Part shown: positions 17,284 to 40,351 of the stretch, one piece after another
Layout: every line of letters begins with the position of its first letter
Position numbering within the stretch: position 1 is the stretch's first letter
Origin: a virus
Reading direction: 5' to 3' (one strand)
Virus record (IMG/VR): IMGVR_UViG_3300024268_000164
Location: 1 to 40,832 of that record
Length of the DNA: 40,832 nucleotides
Program-made: the position numbers and the translations under genes
The notes under the pieces: model-generated
What the model was told of the DNA's origin: nothing
The model's database searches: none
Seen by the model: the letters and a program-made list of their open reading frames with translations, nothing else

Positions 17284-17330
17284 TTTTCAGCCCTTCTTTT
17301 CATTTTTCGTCCTTTAGCATCATTTTTTGT

Positions 17331-17343
17331 TGATTTTAAATCA
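17331..17343. promoter_or_regulatory. Operator O2: perfect 13-bp palindrome TGATTT-T-AAATCA at the 3' end of the cro-like gene
   Basis: The same extended motif TTGTTGATTTnAAATCAC occurs at 17576-17593. Confidence 0.6.
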
Positions 17344-17554
17344 CTTCCTTAGCAAAAAAAATACGCTCTTTATCAGTCAACTTTGTGATGTTTAATATCT
17401 CGCAAAGTCCACTGATTTGTTTTGATGTGAAAGGTGTCTTGTTTTCACATTTGTTCTTAAATCCTTGTCTTGAAAGGCCTATTGTTTTTGCAATATAGCT
17501 TTTTTTCAAACCGGATTCAGCAATAATTTTTTCAAGTTCAGCCGTGTTGGTCAT
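17336..17554 (-). CDS. Cro-like HTH regulator (first gene of the lytic operon)
   Basis: 72 aa with HTH KKSYIAKTIGLSRQGFKNK. Divergent from the XRE repressor. Confidence 0.7.
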   Translation of the reverse strand: MTNTAELEKIIAESGLKKSYIAKTIGLSRQGFKNKCENKTPFTSKQISGLCEILNITKLTDKERIFFAKEVI

Positions 17555-17579
17555 CCGTTTGCCCCCCTTTCTTATTTGT

Positions 17580-17592
17580 TGATTTCAAATCA
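17580..17592. promoter_or_regulatory. Operator O1: perfect 13-bp palindrome TGATTT-C-AAATCA just downstream of the lytic promoter -10
   Basis: Read directly from the sequence. Positioned to block the leftward promoter. Confidence 0.65.
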
Positions 17593-17599
17593 CGATTTC

Positions 17600-17628
17600 A
17601 ATATAATACTTGTGTGATTATTTGTCAA
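17600..17628 (-). promoter_or_regulatory. Candidate lytic (cro) promoter TTGACA-17-TATATT
   Basis: The -35 is at 17623-17628 and the -10 at 17600-17605 on the minus strand. Confidence 0.55.
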
Positions 17629-17646
17629 CAGGTTTTTGCAAAATTG

Positions 17647-17675
17647 TTGATTTAAAATGCAAATAGTGGTATTAT
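17647..17675 (+). promoter_or_regulatory. Candidate repressor promoter TTGATT-17-(TGg)TATTAT overlapped by the degenerate operator O3 (TGATTTAAAATGC, 17648-17660)
   Basis: Extended -10 TGGTATTAT at 17667-17675. The -35 overlaps the O3 half-site. Confidence 0.5.
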
Positions 17676-17700
17676 CTATTCACGGAAGGTGGTGAAACTT

Positions 17701-18051
17701 ATGTCAAACATTGGTAAGAATATAAAAGAACGCAGGGAATCACTTGGAATGTCGCAAGATGAACTTGCCGAAAAAATGGGATATAAAAGCAGGTCTACAA
17801 TTGCCAAAATTGAAAAAGGTGTAAATGACATTACACAAACTAATATTGTTAGATTTGCAGAAATTCTTAGAACAACCCCTGCTGTACTTATGGGTTGGGA
17901 AAAGGTGCAAGAAAAAAACAATGCCATTGTGGGCATTGTTGGAAGGTTAAGAACTGATGATGAATTTCTCTCTTTGGTAGAAACACTGAACAACCTTGAC
18001 AAAGAAAAAATTGCAGGTGTTCAGCAAATGATTTCAGCTTTCCTGAAGTAA
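17701..18051 (+). CDS. XRE-family HTH repressor (probable maintenance repressor, CI-like role)
   Basis: IGKNIKERRESLGMSQDELAEKMGYKSRSTIAKIEKG is the HTH_3 pattern. ATG at 17701 follows SD GGAAGGTGGTG. Upstream of int and divergent from cro. Confidence 0.8.
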   Translation: MSNIGKNIKERRESLGMSQDELAEKMGYKSRSTIAKIEKGVNDITQTNIVRFAEILRTTPAVLMGWEKVQEKNNAIVGIVGRLRTDDEFLSLVETLNNLDKEKIAGVQQMISAFLK

Positions 18052-18132
18052 TTTCAGAATAAGGTCAAGCAAAGATATGTCATTACATTTTTCTAATAAC
18101 TCGGTGATTTTATTTATGTATTCTTCTCTCAT
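18034..18132 (-). CDS. Micro-ORF A (32 aa): MREEYINKITELLEKCNDISLLDLILKLLQES, paralog of micro-ORF B
   Basis: Hand-called. SD AAAGGAG sits 6 nt upstream. 17/32 residues are identical to the ORF at 21805..21906, with many synonymous differences. The 3' end overlaps the repressor 3' end in antisense. Confidence 0.6.
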   Translation of the reverse strand: MREEYINKITELLEKCNDISLLDLILKLLQES

Positions 18133-18298: not shown

Positions 18299-20053
18299 AT
18301 GGCAAAAGTTATCATCACGAACAGGGGAGATAAAAAGAAACCTTCTTGGCAATACCGTTTTGAATTGGCAAAGGTGGATGGCAAAAGAAGATATGCAACC
18401 AAGGCAGGATTCAAAACTAAGGAAGAAGCAGAAAAGGCAGGCAACCTTGCCCTTGCTGAATATCTCCGGGCAGGCAAGCACTTTGAACCTTCTGAAATGT
18501 CTGTGGCAGATTATCTTGATTATTGGGTAAACAATTATGCCGTTGTGAATCTTGCGGATAATACAGTCAGTGCATACACCAATATCATAAAAAATCATAT
18601 CAAGCCCCGGATTGGCCACTTTATGCTGAAATCCATTGATGTAATGACATTACAGGACATGATCAATGACATATACCTTCAAAAAGGATTCACCAAGAAG
18701 TTCCTGGGGAACATCCTGAAGGTGTGCAAGGGTGCATTCGGATATGCTGCATATACTGCAAAGCTGATTCCATACAACATTGCTGAACCTGTCAAATTGC
18801 CCAAATTCGAGCCAAAAGAAGGAACAATGAAGATTCTATCCAAGGAACAAATGGAAGCCGTTCTTGACCGTTTCTGCAACTCTCCATATCAATATTATGC
18901 AATGCTTATAGGTTACTACACAGGAATGCGAATTGGTGAAGTATATGGATTGACATGGGATGATGTGGATTTGAGAAATGGCATCATTCATGTCAGACAG
19001 CAATGCAAAGTAAAAGACAAGGATGCCATGGCAGGACGGAAGCCACAAAAAGGCAAGGCATTGAACAGATGGTACCTTGGTGCCTTGAAAAACAATTCTT
19101 CATACAGAACCATCAAAATTGGTGATGAATTGCTGAATGCACTTACTGCATATAAGGAAATGCAAGAAAAGGCTGAAGAAGAATATGGTGAATTTTATGT
19201 GAAGCACTACCTGAAGGAAGAAAAGCTTGCCAATAGTAGAATAGAACACCGGATCATATCACAAACGGATGAAGCAGGCCTGTGTCCATATCCCAGGGTG
19301 AAGCTTGTGTGCGTGAAGGAAAATGGTGAATTCCGGGGAACTGTACCAATGAAATATGTTGCAAAGGTTGTCAAAACAGAAATGGGCTTTGAAGATTTCC
19401 ATTTCCACATGTTGCGACACACTCATGCCACTGTGCTTGTGTCAAATACAGAAGAATTGCAAATCAAAGATGTTTCAGAAAGGCTTGGTCATGCATCAAT
19501 TAAAACCACAATGGACACCTATGTTTCAAACACAGATGAAATGCGTGTGAAATCTATGGAAATATTTGAAAAAGTGGGCAAATTGAATGTGAAACATAGA
19601 AATGAAAGACTTTATGAGATTTGGAAAAGCACAAAGAACAGATGCAACAGCACTTCATTTTATAAAAGCCGGGGAATCAAATTTCATGATGCATGGCTTG
19701 ATTATGAAGTATTCGAGCAGTGGGCAATGGAAAACGGATATGAAGATGATTTGTCACTGATAAGAAAAGATAAAACACTTGATTTTTGCCCTGATAACTG
19801 TATATGGTCATCTGAAAACAAAAATGTGCGTGGAAAGCATGTGTGGACAGATGGACACAACATCAGATCATATTCTGTCAGAAATATTGGTTCATCATAT
19901 CAATACAGTATTACTGAATATGACCAAAAAGGCAAAAGAAAAAATATTCAAAAGGCAGGTTTTAAGTCCGAACAGGAAGCAAAAGAAGCAGCGGAAGCTG
20001 TCATTGAAGCCATGTATGAAAATGCGACAGCATTGCTCAAAAGAATAAAGTAA
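18299..20053 (+). CDS. int: Tyrosine integrase with an N-terminal Arm-binding domain and an unusual ~165-aa C-terminal extension
   Basis: Catalytic motifs YTGMRIGE, HMLRHTHAT and LGHASIKTTMDTY (Tyr codon at 19520-19522). The N-terminus SWQYRFE..GKRRYATKAGFKTKEEAEKA is Arm-domain-like. Confidence 0.9.
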   Translation: MAKVIITNRGDKKKPSWQYRFELAKVDGKRRYATKAGFKTKEEAEKAGNLALAEYLRAGKHFEPSEMSVADYLDYWVNNYAVVNLADNTVSAYTNIIKNHIKPRIGHFMLKSIDVMTLQDMINDIYLQKGFTKKFLGNILKVCKGAFGYAAYTAKLIPYNIAEPVKLPKFEPKEGTMKILSKEQMEAVLDRFCNSPYQYYAMLIGYYTGMRIGEVYGLTWDDVDLRNGIIHVRQQCKVKDKDAMAGRKPQKGKALNRWYLGALKNNSSYRTIKIGDELLNALTAYKEMQEKAEEEYGEFYVKHYLKEEKLANSRIEHRIISQTDEAGLCPYPRVKLVCVKENGEFRGTVPMKYVAKVVKTEMGFEDFHFHMLRHTHATVLVSNTEELQIKDVSERLGHASIKTTMDTYVSNTDEMRVKSMEIFEKVGKLNVKHRNERLYEIWKSTKNRCNSTSFYKSRGIKFHDAWLDYEVFEQWAMENGYEDDLSLIRKDKTLDFCPDNCIWSSENKNVRGKHVWTDGHNIRSYSVRNIGSSYQYSITEYDQKGKRKNIQKAGFKSEQEAKEAAEAVIEAMYENATALLKRIK

Positions 20054-20056
20054 TCC

Positions 20057-20397
20057 TGTACGCAAAATGCGTACACCGGAACCAATGCGTACAGAATGCG
20101 TACAAAATGCGTACAGGACCAAAAAAACACATATTTTAAATTATGAAGCAATCGCTAGAAACCGCATAAAATCAGGGTTTTTTCAGTTTCGTCCACAACA
20201 CTTCTTATACTTCTTACCACTTCCGCATGAAGTTTTTTGGGATATATTTATCGTAATTTATTATCACTTTGTATCACCTTGAAACACCGATAAATACAGT
20301 GGTATCAAGGAAAAACAATACTTTTCATCACTTTTTATCATTTCTTATTATTATGTGCAATTCTGCTAGTGCGTACAAAATGCGTACACAGTACGCA
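20057..20397. other. attP-like region: arm-type sites TGCGTACA (5 left, 3 right) flanking a ~250-bp AT-rich core
   Basis: Sites are at 20057 (inverted), 20068, 20086, 20097 and 20108 (the last three phased at 11 bp), and at 20370, 20381 and 20391 (inverted, partial). Lies immediately after int. Confidence 0.7.
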
Positions 20398-20406
20398 AAT
20401 ATAAAA

Positions 20407-20440
20407 AATAGCCACCGTTTTGGTGGCTATTTTATTTTTT
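20407..20440. terminator. Bidirectional rho-independent terminator
   Basis: AATAGCCACC-GTTTT-GGTGGCTATT with T-runs on both strands. Ends the 20427..20945 gene and would stop readthrough from int. Confidence 0.75.
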
Positions 20441-20945
20441 GAATATAAGAATATGCACTCCGGTGTTTTTCAACATAATTTATGCATTCTTCATCCATCA
20501 CTTCATAATATGTTTGTAGTGAATCATAAAAATTTTGATATTGCCTTATTTGTGCTTTTTCTGTTTTCAATCCTTTTGCTTTGGTTTCAACGGTTTTATA
20601 ATATCTTGTTAAAAACTCATAAATACACCTGTGTTTATTTTGATGAAATTCTTTTAGTACATCACTCGGCTTTACATCCTTAAAAGATACATAGGGTTCA
20701 AACATGACCAAATCAGTTGCTTTTTCTTCCATCAGTTTCAACCTAGAAAAGAATACATCCGGTTTTACTGTTTCCGTTATGGGTTTTTTACAATCATTTA
20801 TTATACGCAAATCGTTATTGATTCTAGGCAATGTCATTTCTAATAATTGGTTTTTATTAAATTTCAATCGTGGAAGTGGTTCTTCCAGTAATGCATTTTG
20901 CCATTTTAAAAGTTTGTCATTCTTTCCAAAACCAAATATACTCAT
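20427..20945 (-). CDS. Hypothetical protein of unknown function (172 aa from MSIFGFGKND), AT-rich, attP-proximal
   Basis: SD AGAGGGGG upstream. Co-directional with and 14 nt downstream of the LexA-like gene. No recognisable motif and no TM segment. Confidence 0.65.
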   Translation of the reverse strand: MSIFGFGKNDKLLKWQNALLEEPLPRLKFNKNQLLEMTLPRINNDLRIINDCKKPITETVKPDVFFSRLKLMEEKATDLVMFEPYVSFKDVKPSDVLKEFHQNKHRCIYEFLTRYYKTVETKAKGLKTEKAQIRQYQNFYDSLQTYYEVMDEECINYVEKHRSAYSYIQKIK

Positions 20946-20959
20946 ATACATACCCCCTC

Positions 20960-21658
20960 TTATGTTCTTATTACACCGCAACATGTGCCAATGTATTGCA
21001 CTTCATCCATCCGCTTCAGAACAATGTCTGAATCCTGATTATGTAGGCACTGCAACCGGTAATGTCCATCTTCTTCAATGAATTTCCTGATATATACCCT
21101 ATCACCACGCAAGAAGGCAGCACATTCTTCATTGCCTGGGAAACGATTTTCAAAAAGAATAACATCCCCTTTGCAGAATTTTGGTGCCAAGTCATTGCTT
21201 GTCATTTTAATTGCAATATAAGCTTCTTGTGTGCCTGTTTCAATTTCAATGGTTTCACATGTATCATATATGATTCCCTTGTGTATTTCCCCATGTGGAA
21301 GAAGGCAGGGAATCTTGTGTTTCATGAAGGCTTCCCTTTCACTTTTTACCGAACCTGCTTCATACTTGGCAATCAATTCAATGATGCTTTTTCCATGCGG
21401 ACCGCATGACCGGTAATTCCGCAATATAGCCTTTTCCTGTGGTGTATGCGGACATTTTCCCATAAGGCAATTCATACTGTGACCGGTTGCTTCTGATATA
21501 GCCATGACGGTTGAAACCTTTGGATCAGGTGTTTTTCCATAATATATATTTCTGATTGTGTCTAATGGCAGTCCGCTTTCGTCTGCCAATTTCTCTTTGG
21601 TCCACCCCAATTCGGCAAGGATTTCTTGTAACCTTTTGCTTAAAATTTTACCCGGCAT
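20960..21658 (-). CDS. LexA/CI-like regulator: N-terminal XRE HTH plus C-terminal S24 peptidase-like domain
   Basis: N-terminus LSKRLQEILAELGWTKEKLADESGLPLDTIRNIYYG. C-terminus KGDVILFEN....ECAAFLRGDRVYIRKF......YRLQCLHN....IVL.....QYIGTCCGVIR parallels LexA DGDLLAV...VVVARIDDEVTVKRL...VELLPEN...IEGLAVGVIR. Ala-Gly at residues 101-102. Confidence 0.75.
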   Translation of the reverse strand: MPGKILSKRLQEILAELGWTKEKLADESGLPLDTIRNIYYGKTPDPKVSTVMAISEATGHSMNCLMGKCPHTPQEKAILRNYRSCGPHGKSIIELIAKYEAGSVKSEREAFMKHKIPCLLPHGEIHKGIIYDTCETIEIETGTQEAYIAIKMTSNDLAPKFCKGDVILFENRFPGNEECAAFLRGDRVYIRKFIEEDGHYRLQCLHNQDSDIVLKRMDEVQYIGTCCGVIRT

Positions 21659-21670
21659 ACATTTCCCCCT

Positions 21671-21690
21671 GTGTCAAGAATGACACCGCA
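21671..21690. promoter_or_regulatory. Operator-like site GTGTCA-AGAA-TGACACCGCA between the LexA-like gene and micro-ORF B
   Basis: Perfect 6-bp inverted repeat with a 4-bp spacer. 15 of its 20 positions recur at 39317..39336. Confidence 0.6.
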
Positions 21691-21713
21691 ACTAACATTT
21701 TTCGACAAAAATA

Positions 21714-21742
21714 ATGTTAAACTTGATATTTCTTTTTGTCAA
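21714..21742 (-). promoter_or_regulatory. Candidate promoter of the LexA-like gene (TTGACA-17-TAACAT)
   Basis: The -35 is at 21737-21742 and the -10 at 21714-21719. The operator lies downstream of the -10. Confidence 0.4.
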
Positions 21743-21804
21743 TATTTGGGATAAATTTTAGATATAACCAATTGGCTTCTTTTACAAAAATGAGGTATAA
21801 CAAA

Positions 21805-21906
21805 ATGGGTGAGGAATATGTTGAAAAAATTATACTAAAGGTAAGGGAATGCAAAGATATAGCATTGTTGGATATGATACTGAAGATATTGGTTGCATCA
21901 AAATAA
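21805..21906 (+). CDS. Micro-ORF B (33 aa): MGEEYVEKIILKVRECKDIALLDMILKILVASK, paralog of micro-ORF A
   Basis: Hand-called. SD GAGGT upstream. Divergent from the LexA-like gene. Its stop is immediately followed by a perfect bidirectional terminator. Confidence 0.6.
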   Translation: MGEEYVEKIILKVRECKDIALLDMILKILVASK

Positions 21907-21936
21907 AAAGGGCAGGGATTCATTTCCCTGCCCTTT
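21907..21936. terminator. Bidirectional rho-independent terminator
   Basis: AAAGGGCAGGGA-TTCATT-TCCCTGCCCTTT, a 12-bp perfect stem with T-runs on both strands. Ends the late operon (minus strand) and micro-ORF B (plus strand). Confidence 0.85.
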
Positions 21937-21940
21937 CTTT

Positions 21941-22219
21941 TTACTGATGCTCTAATTTTACAATCTTTTCATTGATTGCCTTGATCTGTTCTTCCACCAC
22001 AGGCATCCGGTGTGCAAAGTTATTGTGTTCCCTGACTTCCCTGGTCAATTCATCCAATTTGTATTCAATCAGGGCAACTGTTTGCTGTTGCTTTGCTTCC
22101 GTTTCCATTGCGTGGGCCTTATGTTCTGCCAATGTCTTTTTGTGTGTGAAGTGATTGTTTATCAAACACACAGTAAGTGTCACTGCACCCCCAATTCCTG
22201 CTGCAATAATTGTTTCCAT
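21941..22219 (-). CDS. Small N-terminally membrane-anchored coiled-coil protein (BhlA/UviB-like topology; holin or lysis-accessory candidate)
   Basis: TM segment IIAAGIGGAVTLTVCLI followed by a long helix. Last gene of the late operon, where lysis genes normally sit. Confidence 0.5.
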   Translation of the reverse strand: METIIAAGIGGAVTLTVCLINNHFTHKKTLAEHKAHAMETEAKQQQTVALIEYKLDELTREVREHNNFAHRMPVVEEQIKAINEKIVKLEHQ

Positions 22220-39282: not shown

Positions 39283-39316
39283 ATCAATTTTCCTTTCCTT
39301 TGTCTGTGTTTTTATG

Positions 39317-39336
39317 TGCGGTGTCACCGCTGACAA
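39317..39336. promoter_or_regulatory. Second copy of the operator-like site: TTGTCA-GCGG-TGACACCGCA (minus strand), 34 nt upstream of the scaffold start
   Basis: Matches 21671..21690 at 15/20 positions, including an identical 10-mer TGACACCGCA and the TGTCA inverted arm. Confidence 0.55.
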
Positions 39337-39398
39337 GCCCAGTTTTAATGACTTATGGCAGGTCATATTGTGAAGGTATAAATGCCACCTTCAGGGCA

Positions 39399-39442: not shown

Positions 39443-40351
39443 TTATTTGATTCTGATTTTCTGCCCAACATAGATTCTATTGGGATTTTTAATGCCATTG
39501 ATTTTGGCAAGTTCCTGATATGTGGTGCCGTACTGCTCGGCAATCTCTGCAAGGGTATCATCCTGCTTTACCGTGTAATACTTCACCTTTTCATCATCTT
39601 CCAACATTGCATTGACAATGGCCTGAACTGCTTCATAGTCATATCCGGCAGTGGTCAGGTTGTTTTCCCTTTCAATGCCTACACCCCACAGGCCAAGAAT
39701 GACTTCTTCAGCAAGTTCTTCATTGCTCTTTGCCGGTGCTTCTGTCTTTGTTACATTTCCGCTGATTTCACCGGGAAAATCTCTGTAACAGATATTCACA
39801 TCCACATTTCCATTGATTCCGGGAATGGAACCCTTGGAAGTGTACTGCCACATGTCATAGGTGCCACTGATGCCTGTGGGCTTGTTCTTGCTGTACTTTG
39901 CAACCCACTTGGTGTACCGGTCAAGGCCATTCTTCAGATAGACACCCCACCAATTCTGATTTGCATATATACCGCACCAATACCCTTCTTCTTCAATCAT
40001 GGTGCAAAATACATGTGCCCTTTCAACAGCACCATTCTGTGTGCCCTGTTCTTCCAGGTCATAATATACTGGGAAGGAAAGCTTGCCCTTGTAAGGTTCC
40101 AACAGTCTAAGAACATGCAGTGCTTCACTCTTTGCCCCTGCCATTGTCTTTGCGTATGAATACAGATAAACACCAAAAGGAATGCCATGCTTGATGCAGG
40201 CTTCCACATTCTCTTTGAATCTCGGATCATCCTGACTTCTGATGTCTGAACCAAAACCACACCGGATGATTGCACCATCAATGTGGTCCTTTACCTTTGC
40301 CCAATTGATTGTGCCCTGATGCTTTGACACATCAATCACTTTCATTTCCAC
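39443..40351 (-). CDS. Endolysin: GH25 muramidase + CW_7-like repeat + LysM
   Basis: [26 protein letters not shown] matches GH25. [33 protein letters not shown] matches CW_7. [30 protein letters not shown] matches LysM. Confidence 0.9.

Follow-up and report, generated by a model that had tools for sequence, protein, structure and literature searches.

A phage-encoded LexA/CI-like regulator that lacks the self-cleavage residues, and its probable place in a portable cassette

Introduction

Why does a phage that already carries a classical divergent repressor/cro switch encode a second repressor-type protein, and does that protein cleave itself upon DNA damage? The question is raised by IMG/VR record IMGVR_UViG_3300024268_000164, positions 1 to 40,832 (40,832 nt, the whole of which is referred to as the window), in which a first-pass annotation had noticed a 232-residue protein with a helix-turn-helix (HTH) and an S24 (LexA/CI-like) domain, encoded beyond attP from the switch. 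That annotation left open whether the protein (hereafter, the regulator) is an active self-cleaving repressor or a pseudo-peptidase, and proposed that it serves either as a DNA-damage sensor or as a dedicated repressor of other promoters, pointing to a site at 39317-39336. Here we report that the regulator keeps the S24 fold and has lost every residue tested for self-cleavage, that most of its relatives are paired with a gene for a stand-alone Spo0A effector domain, and that the site at 39 kb belongs to a covarying RNA. We favor, with moderate confidence, a reading in which a portable cassette, probably responsive to Spo0A, is governed by a non-cleavable repressor that also controls its own expression. 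Coordinates of all features are collected in Table 1.

The regulator and its fold

The existence of a second repressor-type gene, as first proposed, was confirmed. The protein carries a five-helix HTH_3-type domain (Pfam HTH_3, PF01381, residues 10-59, 25 bits for a cut-off of 23; a second match, to HTH_26, PF13443, scores 23.4 bits for a cut-off of 22) and a Peptidase_S24 domain (PF00717, residues 143-226, 33.1 bits for a cut-off of 23.3), and it falls into phrog_4 'transcriptional repressor' (PHROGs, 1.3e-15); NCBIfam gave no match above its cut-off. Since 369 homologues were found in one search and 4567 in an exhaustive profile search (39 of these below 1e-30), and since the identical protein occurs on at least 24 metagenomic contigs from several metagenomes, the open reading frame (ORF) is not a chance one.

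The C-terminal core was also confirmed as LexA-like. When the AlphaFold2 (AF2) model (predicted local distance difference test score, pLDDT, of 86.3) was searched with Foldseek, the top matches were the lambda-186 hybrid repressor 7jvt (E 2.8e-9) and the C-terminal domain of phage 186 CI, 2fkd (TMt 0.70), and the hyper-cleavable fragment of lambda CI (2hnf/2ho0) aligned across 130 columns with a TMt of 0.66-0.67. LexA C-terminal domains, cleavage-site region included, matched at 0.57-0.73 and lambda CI C-terminal domains at 0.68-0.70, both together reaching up to 0.78, and the best BFVD matches were 'Repressor protein CI' of uncultured phages and LexA-like proteins. A profile of the regulator family, compared to the PDB, matched the HTH domains of Lp1 protein 11, SinR, and DdrO (3b7h, 1e-5; SinR, 1.6e-4).

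The residues N155, P159, D165, R191, C64, C69, C85, and C118, which form a signature of the regulator's clade, are all found in the window protein. The helical linker holds the motif YR-x-C-G-x-H-G-K, and a clade-specific triad, C64-x4-C69-x-H71, lies just upstream of it, with the three residues co-occurring across relatives (r 0.66-0.74). The triad is accompanied by C85-x2-H88 in the linker, and nine Cys/His residues are conserved at 93% or above within the close clade. As far as sequence can tell, the Cys/His residues between positions 64 and 88 suggest a metal site. A four-Cys metal cluster within the C-terminal domain was considered as well and found to be unsupported, since the cysteines accumulate stepwise and only C64, C69, and H71 co-occur. 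A role in anti-phage defense, such as that of CapH in the cyclic-oligonucleotide-based signaling system CBASS, was rejected; PADLOC found no defense system, there was neither CapP nor any other defense gene nearby, and the capH match (27.5 bits) was at the HTH level only.

Loss of the self-cleavage residues

PDB searches with the single sequence or a close-family profile returned HTH matches only and did not reach the C-terminal domain, and an hhalign comparison of the regulator with LexA alone was uninformative. Therefore, we took the alignment register through distant canonical relatives, using a MAFFT alignment of the query and 99 full-length relatives, some of which retain the canonical motifs G-[DN]-S-M-x-P...G-D and K-[KE]-[FY]. 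In this register, S154-N155-D156-L157-A158-P159 corresponds to G-[DN]-S-M-x-P, and Y189-I190-R191-K192-F193 to x-x-K-x-F. That is, the nucleophilic Ser column is occupied by D156 (nt 21191-21193), with N155 standing for the D/N of G-[DN]-S-M, and the general-base Lys column by R191 (nt 21086-21088). Similarly, the P-V-S-A/G-T-G of the canonical relatives (the slash marks the scissile bond) aligns to P121..I125/H126..G128, placing the scissile position at I125/H126 (nt 21281-21286). An independent profile of 16 canonical relatives matched the query with 116.7 bits and E. coli LexA with 43.1 bits in one shared register (S119 equals D156, K156 equals R191, and A84/G85 equals I125/H126). The earlier assignment of the Lys column to the R of IRKF thus held by both alignments; that of the Ser column to N155 was off by one.

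We then counted residues in 282 sequences, which included 120 close homologues, 62 locus-encoded proteins, and the 39 most distant relatives. The Ser-Met and Lys dyad is absent from all 120 close homologues and all 62 locus-encoded proteins (0/182). R191 is present in 120/120 and 61/62 of them, respectively, and N155 is invariant, while column 156 varies among the close homologues (D99 A9 E5 T3 S2 N1 V1). Of the 39 most distant relatives, 14 combine Ser-Met with Lys, and a single one has Ser-Met but no Lys. Since the relatives with Ser-Met also keep the Lys and P-V-S-A-G-T-G, the clade appears to have lost a coherent set of residues. Hence, what had been left open can be decided on alignment evidence: the data strongly support a pseudo-peptidase, in which nucleophile, base, and scissile bond were lost together and the scaffold remained strongly constrained. 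RecA-stimulated autoproteolysis would not be expected because Ser, Lys, and Ala-Gly are replaced by D156, R191, and I125/H126, and for the same reason a role as a DNA-damage sensor by self-cleavage, which had been one of the proposed functions, is unsupported.

Alternatively, the regulator could still be a self-cleaving CI/LexA-type sensor of DNA damage in which nearby positions, namely S154, K192, or the A101-G102 bond, stand in for the canonical ones. Apart from the S24 fold itself, such a view can point to a Ser two positions ahead of the nucleophile column, to a Lys that directly follows the base column, and to an Ala-Gly pair at 101-102, which had originally been named as the candidate cleavage site. 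It is also known from LexA mutagenesis that Arg at the Lys position slows down cleavage rather than abolishing it fully. Nonetheless, the S154 column reads N52 S49 T10 G6 and the K192 column K82 R27 Q7 E4 in the close homologues, that is, neither residue is conserved, and G102 is found in only 59/120. Further, A101-G102 is not homologous to the cleavage site but is located 24 residues upstream of the corresponding loop, within the predicted helix 87-109. With the catalytic and scissile residues lost as one set in the clade, we regard this alternative as exceedingly unlikely.

A portable cassette with a Spo0A effector-domain gene

A scan of species-representative genomes returned 45 loci encoding relatives of the regulator, nearly all of them in Lachnospiraceae metagenome-assembled genomes from animal guts, and a further 14 viral contigs carry the gene (loci are denoted by L numbers below). 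In about 42 of the 45 genome loci and in six viral loci, the regulator gene is divergently paired, across a gap of about 120-150 bp, with a gene of 115-159 codons for a stand-alone Spo0A C-terminal (effector) domain, Spo0A_C; the partner in L009, for instance, scores 98 bits (Pfam) and has kept the SRVERAIRHAI helix. About 40 of the 45 genome loci have no phage-like genes within 5 kb, and the nearest chromosomal copies of the regulator (78-82% identity) adjoin ftsH-hpt-tilS-spoIIE or murL genes. In the phages of L009 and L011, the full cassette occupies the slot in which the window phage has its regulator, flanked by DUF859 tail fibre/holin genes and a serine recombinase. Since both phages encode a separate HTH-only main repressor, the cassette is cargo and not an immunity switch. 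The window phage, like L005 and L021, has a small ORF in place of the Spo0A_C gene.

This replacement raises the possibility that the phage merely took half of a host cassette and that the regulator is a decaying remnant with no role beyond autoregulation. The Spo0A_C partner is indeed missing, and the downstream gene is an unrelated orphan. However, the regulator ORF is intact and identical on all the contigs mentioned above, none of the clade-invariant residues and none of the promoter and operator elements have been lost, and the phages of L005 and L021 share the arrangement of regulator and small ORF, which makes decay a very unlikely explanation.

A few additional observations concern the same loci. 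In L010, L015, L017, and L021, a gene of 140-185 codons for a protein resembling single-stranded-DNA-binding protein (SSB-like, oligonucleotide-binding OB-fold) stands on the divergent promoter, with or without the small ORF; because it takes the place of Spo0A_C, the cargo of the cassette appears to be interchangeable. Loci L005 and L006 lie on one contig (ENA contig NODE_4_length_342631) and represent identical tail-lysin-regulator prophage ends that are 40.1 kb, or one phage length, apart, one adjoining a recombinase and the other host phoH/ybeY, which indicates a tandem prophage or an assembly that mixed integrated and circular forms.

The putative bidirectional control region

All control elements of the cassette are present in the window within 21671-21742. 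The sigma-A-type promoter of the regulator operon (TTGACA at 21742-21737 and TAACAT at 21719-21714) matches the consensus at 10/12 positions; both hexamers are conserved in 53 unique loci, and the spacer is invariably 17 nt. The consensus of the region in these loci, TTATtccAaaTaTTGACAAaaa.AAATATct..ttTAACATtatttttgtcgaaaaa, is conserved much more tightly than the proteins are. Six nucleotides after the -10 hexamer comes a perfect Spo0A box, TGTCGAA, the core motif of 0A boxes, which the Spo0A DNA-binding domain on its own can bind even when it is not phosphorylated (PMC3485338). Read on the plus strand, the box is TTCGACA, and its last six bases (TCGACA, 21702-21707) provide a candidate -35 for a divergent promoter, TCGACA-17-GATATT (9/12 match), whose GATATT (AAATAT on the other strand) is conserved within the spacer in the 53 loci. 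The divergent promoter thus fully overlaps that of the regulator and, judged by its position, would serve the Spo0A_C gene or the small ORF. Farther downstream, a 16-bp palindrome, GTGTCA-N4-TGACAC (GTGTCATTCTTGACAC), starts 26-27 nt after the -10 in 53/54 loci, and this fixed spacing can be argued to reflect a DNA-level constraint, i.e., an operator. Its half-sites are common to the phage copy and the chromosomal cassettes (e.g., GTGTCAAAATTGACAC in L029). A conserved TTATTCCA element was also noted just upstream of the regulator -35 (window 21748-21755), at the same place in 53 loci.

Based on these elements, we propose that the regulator acts as a dimeric XRE-HTH factor whose C-terminal domain would serve in dimerization or partner binding as opposed to RecA-triggered self-cleavage. 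The palindrome, at about +20 to +35, is the most likely binding site of the regulator, which would from there repress its own operon, that is, its own gene and the 172-codon gene downstream. The Spo0A box would lie at about +1 to +10 and double as the -35 of the divergent promoter, which would drive the Spo0A_C gene in most relatives and the 33-codon ORF in the window phage. Given both positions of the box, binding by host Spo0A~P or a truncated Spo0A is expected to shut off the regulator operon and to favor the divergent promoter, in a manner that we liken to the action of Spo0A at abrB and spoIIG-type promoters. The effect of the regulator itself on the divergent promoter could be positive or negative. 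Given that the phage copy is about 80% identical to the chromosomal ones and that both share their operator half-sites, it is also plausible that a prophage-encoded regulator acts on the host's own chromosomal cassette.

Several points weigh against this interpretation. Ser occupies column 156 in a few clade members (2/120 close homologues and 5/62 locus-encoded proteins). No Spo0A_C ORF is found in the window, where the logic of the cassette may thus not apply. TGTCGAA is exact in only half of the loci (27/54, mostly at the same position), it resembles the TGTC of the palindrome half-site and might thus be a site of the regulator's own, and 0A-like boxes are not enriched across the window. 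Of the palindrome cells, 89% conform to dyad symmetry, and two-sided changes, such as GTGTTA..TAACAC and GTGGCA..TGCCAC, number 11 vs. 4.3 in shuffles (0/500); this test is biased, however, in that the 16-mers were chosen by their best match to the pattern. In several loci, pairing is kept only through G-U, and the palindrome could instead be an RNA hairpin of the 5' untranslated region. Finally, the palindrome center is located about 58-61 nt upstream of the presumed divergent start, a distance that suits activation as well as repression. The incompleteness of the cassette in the window phage, in particular, lowers our confidence in a role linked to sporulation.

It is intriguing to go one step further and hypothesize that regulator and control region together constitute a toggle responsive to Spo0A, exchanged by gut Lachnospiraceae and their phages, in which Spo0A~P or a constitutively active truncated Spo0A would flip transcription between two overlapping divergent promoters through one 0A box. 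Under this hypothesis, the orphan phage regulator would read the sporulation state of the host, and possibly redox or metal status via C-x4-C-x-H, and relay it through the family of the 33-codon ORF. We consider this extended version unlikely as a whole, albeit with an appreciable chance; if true, it would link sporulation to the control of lysogeny independently of the SOS response.

The small ORF family and the main repressor

The 33-codon ORF was called independently by gene callers on four JGI contigs and belongs to a family of 14 members, with homologues at the same place in L005 and L021. A paralogous ORF overlaps the 3' end of the main repressor gene in antisense, a position likewise occupied in L005, L009, L010, L011, L015, and L017. 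In the window and in these six loci plus L021, ORFs of 32-40 codons with the consensus M.EEYI..I.ELL..C.DI.LLDLILKLL.KS are found twice per phage, and the two copies point outward from the block formed by the regulator cassette, attP, and the integrase. Comparisons by hhalign and against the PDB revealed no similarity of the small ORFs to either repressor, to any solved structure, or to anything known, and the idea that they mimic the regulator linker or the C terminus of the main repressor was rejected for this lack of support.

The small ORFs, nonetheless, allow for a different reading, in which the regulator is the upper tier of an antirepressor circuit comparable to LexA-Tum of 186 or that of Gifsy. 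That is, the regulator would repress the 33-codon ORF, the product of which (or its paralogue) would inactivate the HTH-only main repressor, and induction would follow when the regulator is displaced, e.g., by Spo0A or by a signal sensed by the Cys/His-rich linker. Such a circuit would fit with a main repressor that has no S24 domain, with the paralogue in antisense between the main repressor and the integrase in seven phages, with the absence of any Pfam-recognizable antirepressor among the annotated genes of the phage, and with the Foldseek match to the C-terminal domain of the non-cleavable 186 CI. It fits less well with the small ORFs resembling neither repressor nor any solved structure, and with most cassettes driving a Spo0A_C gene and not a small ORF; we judge the circuit to be improbable. 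A two-tier organization, as suggested originally, would be possible only via the regulator's own bidirectional control region driving the 33-codon ORF.

The second operator candidate is a leader RNA

The remaining proposal, that the regulator is dedicated to other promoters via the site at 39 kb, did not survive. Within the window, the palindrome pattern is matched exactly once, at the cassette, and once more with a single mismatch, at 39321-39336, between the endolysin gene and the scaffold gene. We compared the regions upstream of the scaffold gene in 80 related phages (L074-L153) and found that the latter match is part of a nested two-helix RNA element, with an outer helix UGUC...GACA, an inner hairpin GCGG-UGACA-CCGC, and a conserved AUAAAAACA in between, directly before the ribosome-binding site. 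Across the 80 phages, 93.2% of cells are paired, seven of the eight pairs show compensatory changes, and two-sided cells number 47 vs. 13.3 in shuffles (0/500). The palindrome is absent from the scaffold leader in both phages that have the regulator as well as the leader (L099, on the contig of L011, and L107, on the contig of L009), and a pattern search of the window found no match in the main switch region either. Hence, 39321-39336 was rejected as a second operator: it is a covarying RNA hairpin of the scaffold leader, and its resemblance to the palindrome is coincidental. No Rfam family matched anywhere in the window, and the leader RNA of the scaffold/capsid operon, shared by at least 80 related phages, may represent an undescribed cis-regulatory RNA.

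Two further hairpins precede the RNA element (window 39283-39345, minus strand). The endolysin gene (GH25, CW_7, and LysM; 39443-40351, minus strand) has the portal region on one side and the scaffold gene on the other, with a terminator-like hairpin after it. Lysis genes are not usually found in such a place, and the holin-like gene (21941-22219) is a long way off.

Locus anatomy and phage context

Table 1. Features of the regulator locus and related elements of the window (a period in the strand column denotes features without strand)
Feature	Position	Strand	Evidence or remark
Gene of the 232-residue HTH and pseudo-S24 regulator	20960..21658	-	ORF, Pfam, homologues, AF2 model
XRE/Cro-C1 HTH DNA-binding domain, residues 8-61	21476..21637	-	Pfam HTH_3/HTH_26; pLDDT 83-93
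Helical linker, residues 73-109	21332..21442	-	Predicted helices 73-84 and 87-109 (AF2); conservation
Pseudo-S24 (LexA/CI-fold) C-terminal domain, residues 113-231	20966..21322	-	Foldseek; alignment register
Regulator-operon promoter (predicted)	21714..21742	-	TTGACA, 17 nt, TAACAT; 10/12 consensus match
Spo0A box TGTCGAA (candidate)	21701..21707	-	Perfect; 6 nt after -10; sole TGTCGAA in the 40.8-kb window
16-bp palindrome, candidate operator	21671..21686	.	Sole exact match in the window
Candidate divergent promoter	21702..21730	+	9/12 match
33-residue ORF MGEEYVEKIILKVRECKDIALLDMILKILVASK, divergent from the regulator	21805..21906	+	GAGG ribosome-binding site; in the place of the Spo0A_C gene
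Paralogous 32-residue ORF MREEYINKITELLEKCNDISLLDLILKLLQES	18034..18132	-	Antisense between main repressor and integrase
HTH-only main repressor, 120 residues	17689..18051	+	ORF, Pfam (without S24 domain)
Cro-like gene, 72 residues	17336..17554	-	ORF, Pfam
Tyrosine integrase	18299..20053	+	
attP-like repeats of TGCGTACAAAATGCGTACA	20063-20125 and 20370-20398		
Terminator-like hairpin, end of the two-gene operon	20405..20433	.	Just before the attP-like repeats
172-residue cargo gene, phrog_7974 of unknown function	20427..20945	-	Ribosome-binding site AGAGGGGG; ATG 20945
Bidirectional terminator-like hairpin, end of the holin-like gene and the 33-residue ORF	21905..21938	.	14-bp stem, T run on both strands
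Holin-like gene	21941..22219	-	Ends in the bidirectional terminator
Nested two-helix RNA element in the leader of the scaffold gene (ATG 39282)	39301..39335	-	Covariation

The regulator is not the repressor of the immunity switch. A separate divergent switch, as had been described, is found at 17336-18051, with a different repressor and different repeats, and the regulator gene lies between the holin-like gene and attP. The repeats in question, TTGTTGATTT(T/C)AAATCAC, flank the Cro-like gene and recur in the intergenic region of the switch (17323-17344, 17572-17593, and 17633-17658); they are probably the operators of the 120-residue main repressor and unrelated to the GTGTCA palindrome.

The regulator gene is preceded, on the 3' side of the palindrome, by an AGGGGG ribosome-binding site and then the ATG. 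The 172-codon ORF begins 14 nt after the regulator stop codon and would be co-transcribed with it. By its predicted signals, i.e., an own promoter and flanking terminators, the pair is an autonomous unit in a moron slot at the prophage end. The 172-codon gene belongs to an orphan family of eight proteins and was rejected as a conserved functional partner, since its homologues occur at other prophage ends without the regulator. What lies downstream of the regulator is variable, namely the 172-residue protein in the window, a 91-residue membrane protein in L005, and no gene in most loci.

Such an arrangement could also be expected of a heteroimmunity or superinfection repressor, that is, a regulator expressed from the prophage that silences incoming phages or resident elements with the same cassette and operator, for instance by blocking their truncated spo0A. 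In addition to the moron position with its own promoter and terminators, related phages with the full cassette have near-identical half-sites, and some genomes carry two copies (L029/L038 and L030/L042). On the other hand, the operator occurs only in the control region of the cassette itself and not at lytic promoters, and the majority of the family is chromosomal and has no phage genes in its vicinity; accordingly, we assign this function only a small chance.

Meaning of the findings

With nucleophile, base, and scissile bond all replaced, the earlier question is answered as far as sequence and fold allow: the second repressor is predicted to be unable to act as a self-cleaving SOS sensor. 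Further, the truncated spo0A genes of gut phages gain a genomic and regulatory context, namely a dedicated, catalytically dead LexA-like partner and a shared promoter region with a consensus Spo0A box. How gut phages and spore-forming hosts control Spo0A fragments thus becomes directly testable, with candidate sites defined. Finally, what had looked like a second operator turned out to be a strongly covarying RNA motif, apparently not described before, that many phages share in the leader of their capsid operon.

Comparison with known systems

Like LexA, lambda CI, and UmuD (MEROPS S24), the regulator combines an N-terminal DNA-binding domain with a C-terminal domain of the S24 beta-fold, through which it likely dimerizes. 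It differs from them in that D156, R191, and I125/H126 replace Ser, Lys, and Ala-Gly, and in not being located at the lysis/lysogeny switch. The nearest structural precedent is CI of coliphage 186, which also has an HTH and a beta-rich C-terminal oligomerization domain without protease activity. 186 CI is a non-cleavable repressor that is inactivated by the LexA-controlled antirepressor Tum, and Gifsy phages employ a LexA-antirepressor system as well. In contrast to the regulator, 186 CI is the main immunity repressor. The likeness is a structural one, and for the window phage an antirepressor logic is no more than a hypothesis. With SinR/SinI, the regulator shares an HTH domain that is nearest in sequence to those of Lp1 protein 11 and SinR, and a small helical ORF adjoins the repressor gene, but its C-terminal domain is S24-like and not the helical hook of SinR, and the small ORF has no similarity to the repressor.

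The control region has parallels of its own. In Bacillus, Spo0A~P shuts off abrB via a 0A box just downstream of the promoter, and in the window a consensus 0A box likewise lies just downstream of a repressor-gene promoter. Similarly, the sin locus of C. difficile is a repressor gene that is repressed by Spo0A (PMC7643835), and the Spo0A boxes of phage phi29/Nf set a precedent for phage promoters that are linked to Spo0A (PMC2731898). Unlike in abrB, sin, and phi29, the box in the window is a single candidate site that also forms the -35 of an overlapping divergent promoter.

Spo0A_C is enriched on mobile elements of Firmicutes (PMC6907783), and truncated, receiver-less spo0A homologues have been described in human-gut phages (Schwartz et al., mBio 2023, PMC10294663). 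In the literature that we searched, neither the pairing of Spo0A_C with an HTH/pseudo-S24 (LexA-like) protein nor a shared control region was described. While the window phage itself has no spo0A fragment, relatives of its regulator are divergently paired with such genes in the same type of phage and in the same genomic slot.

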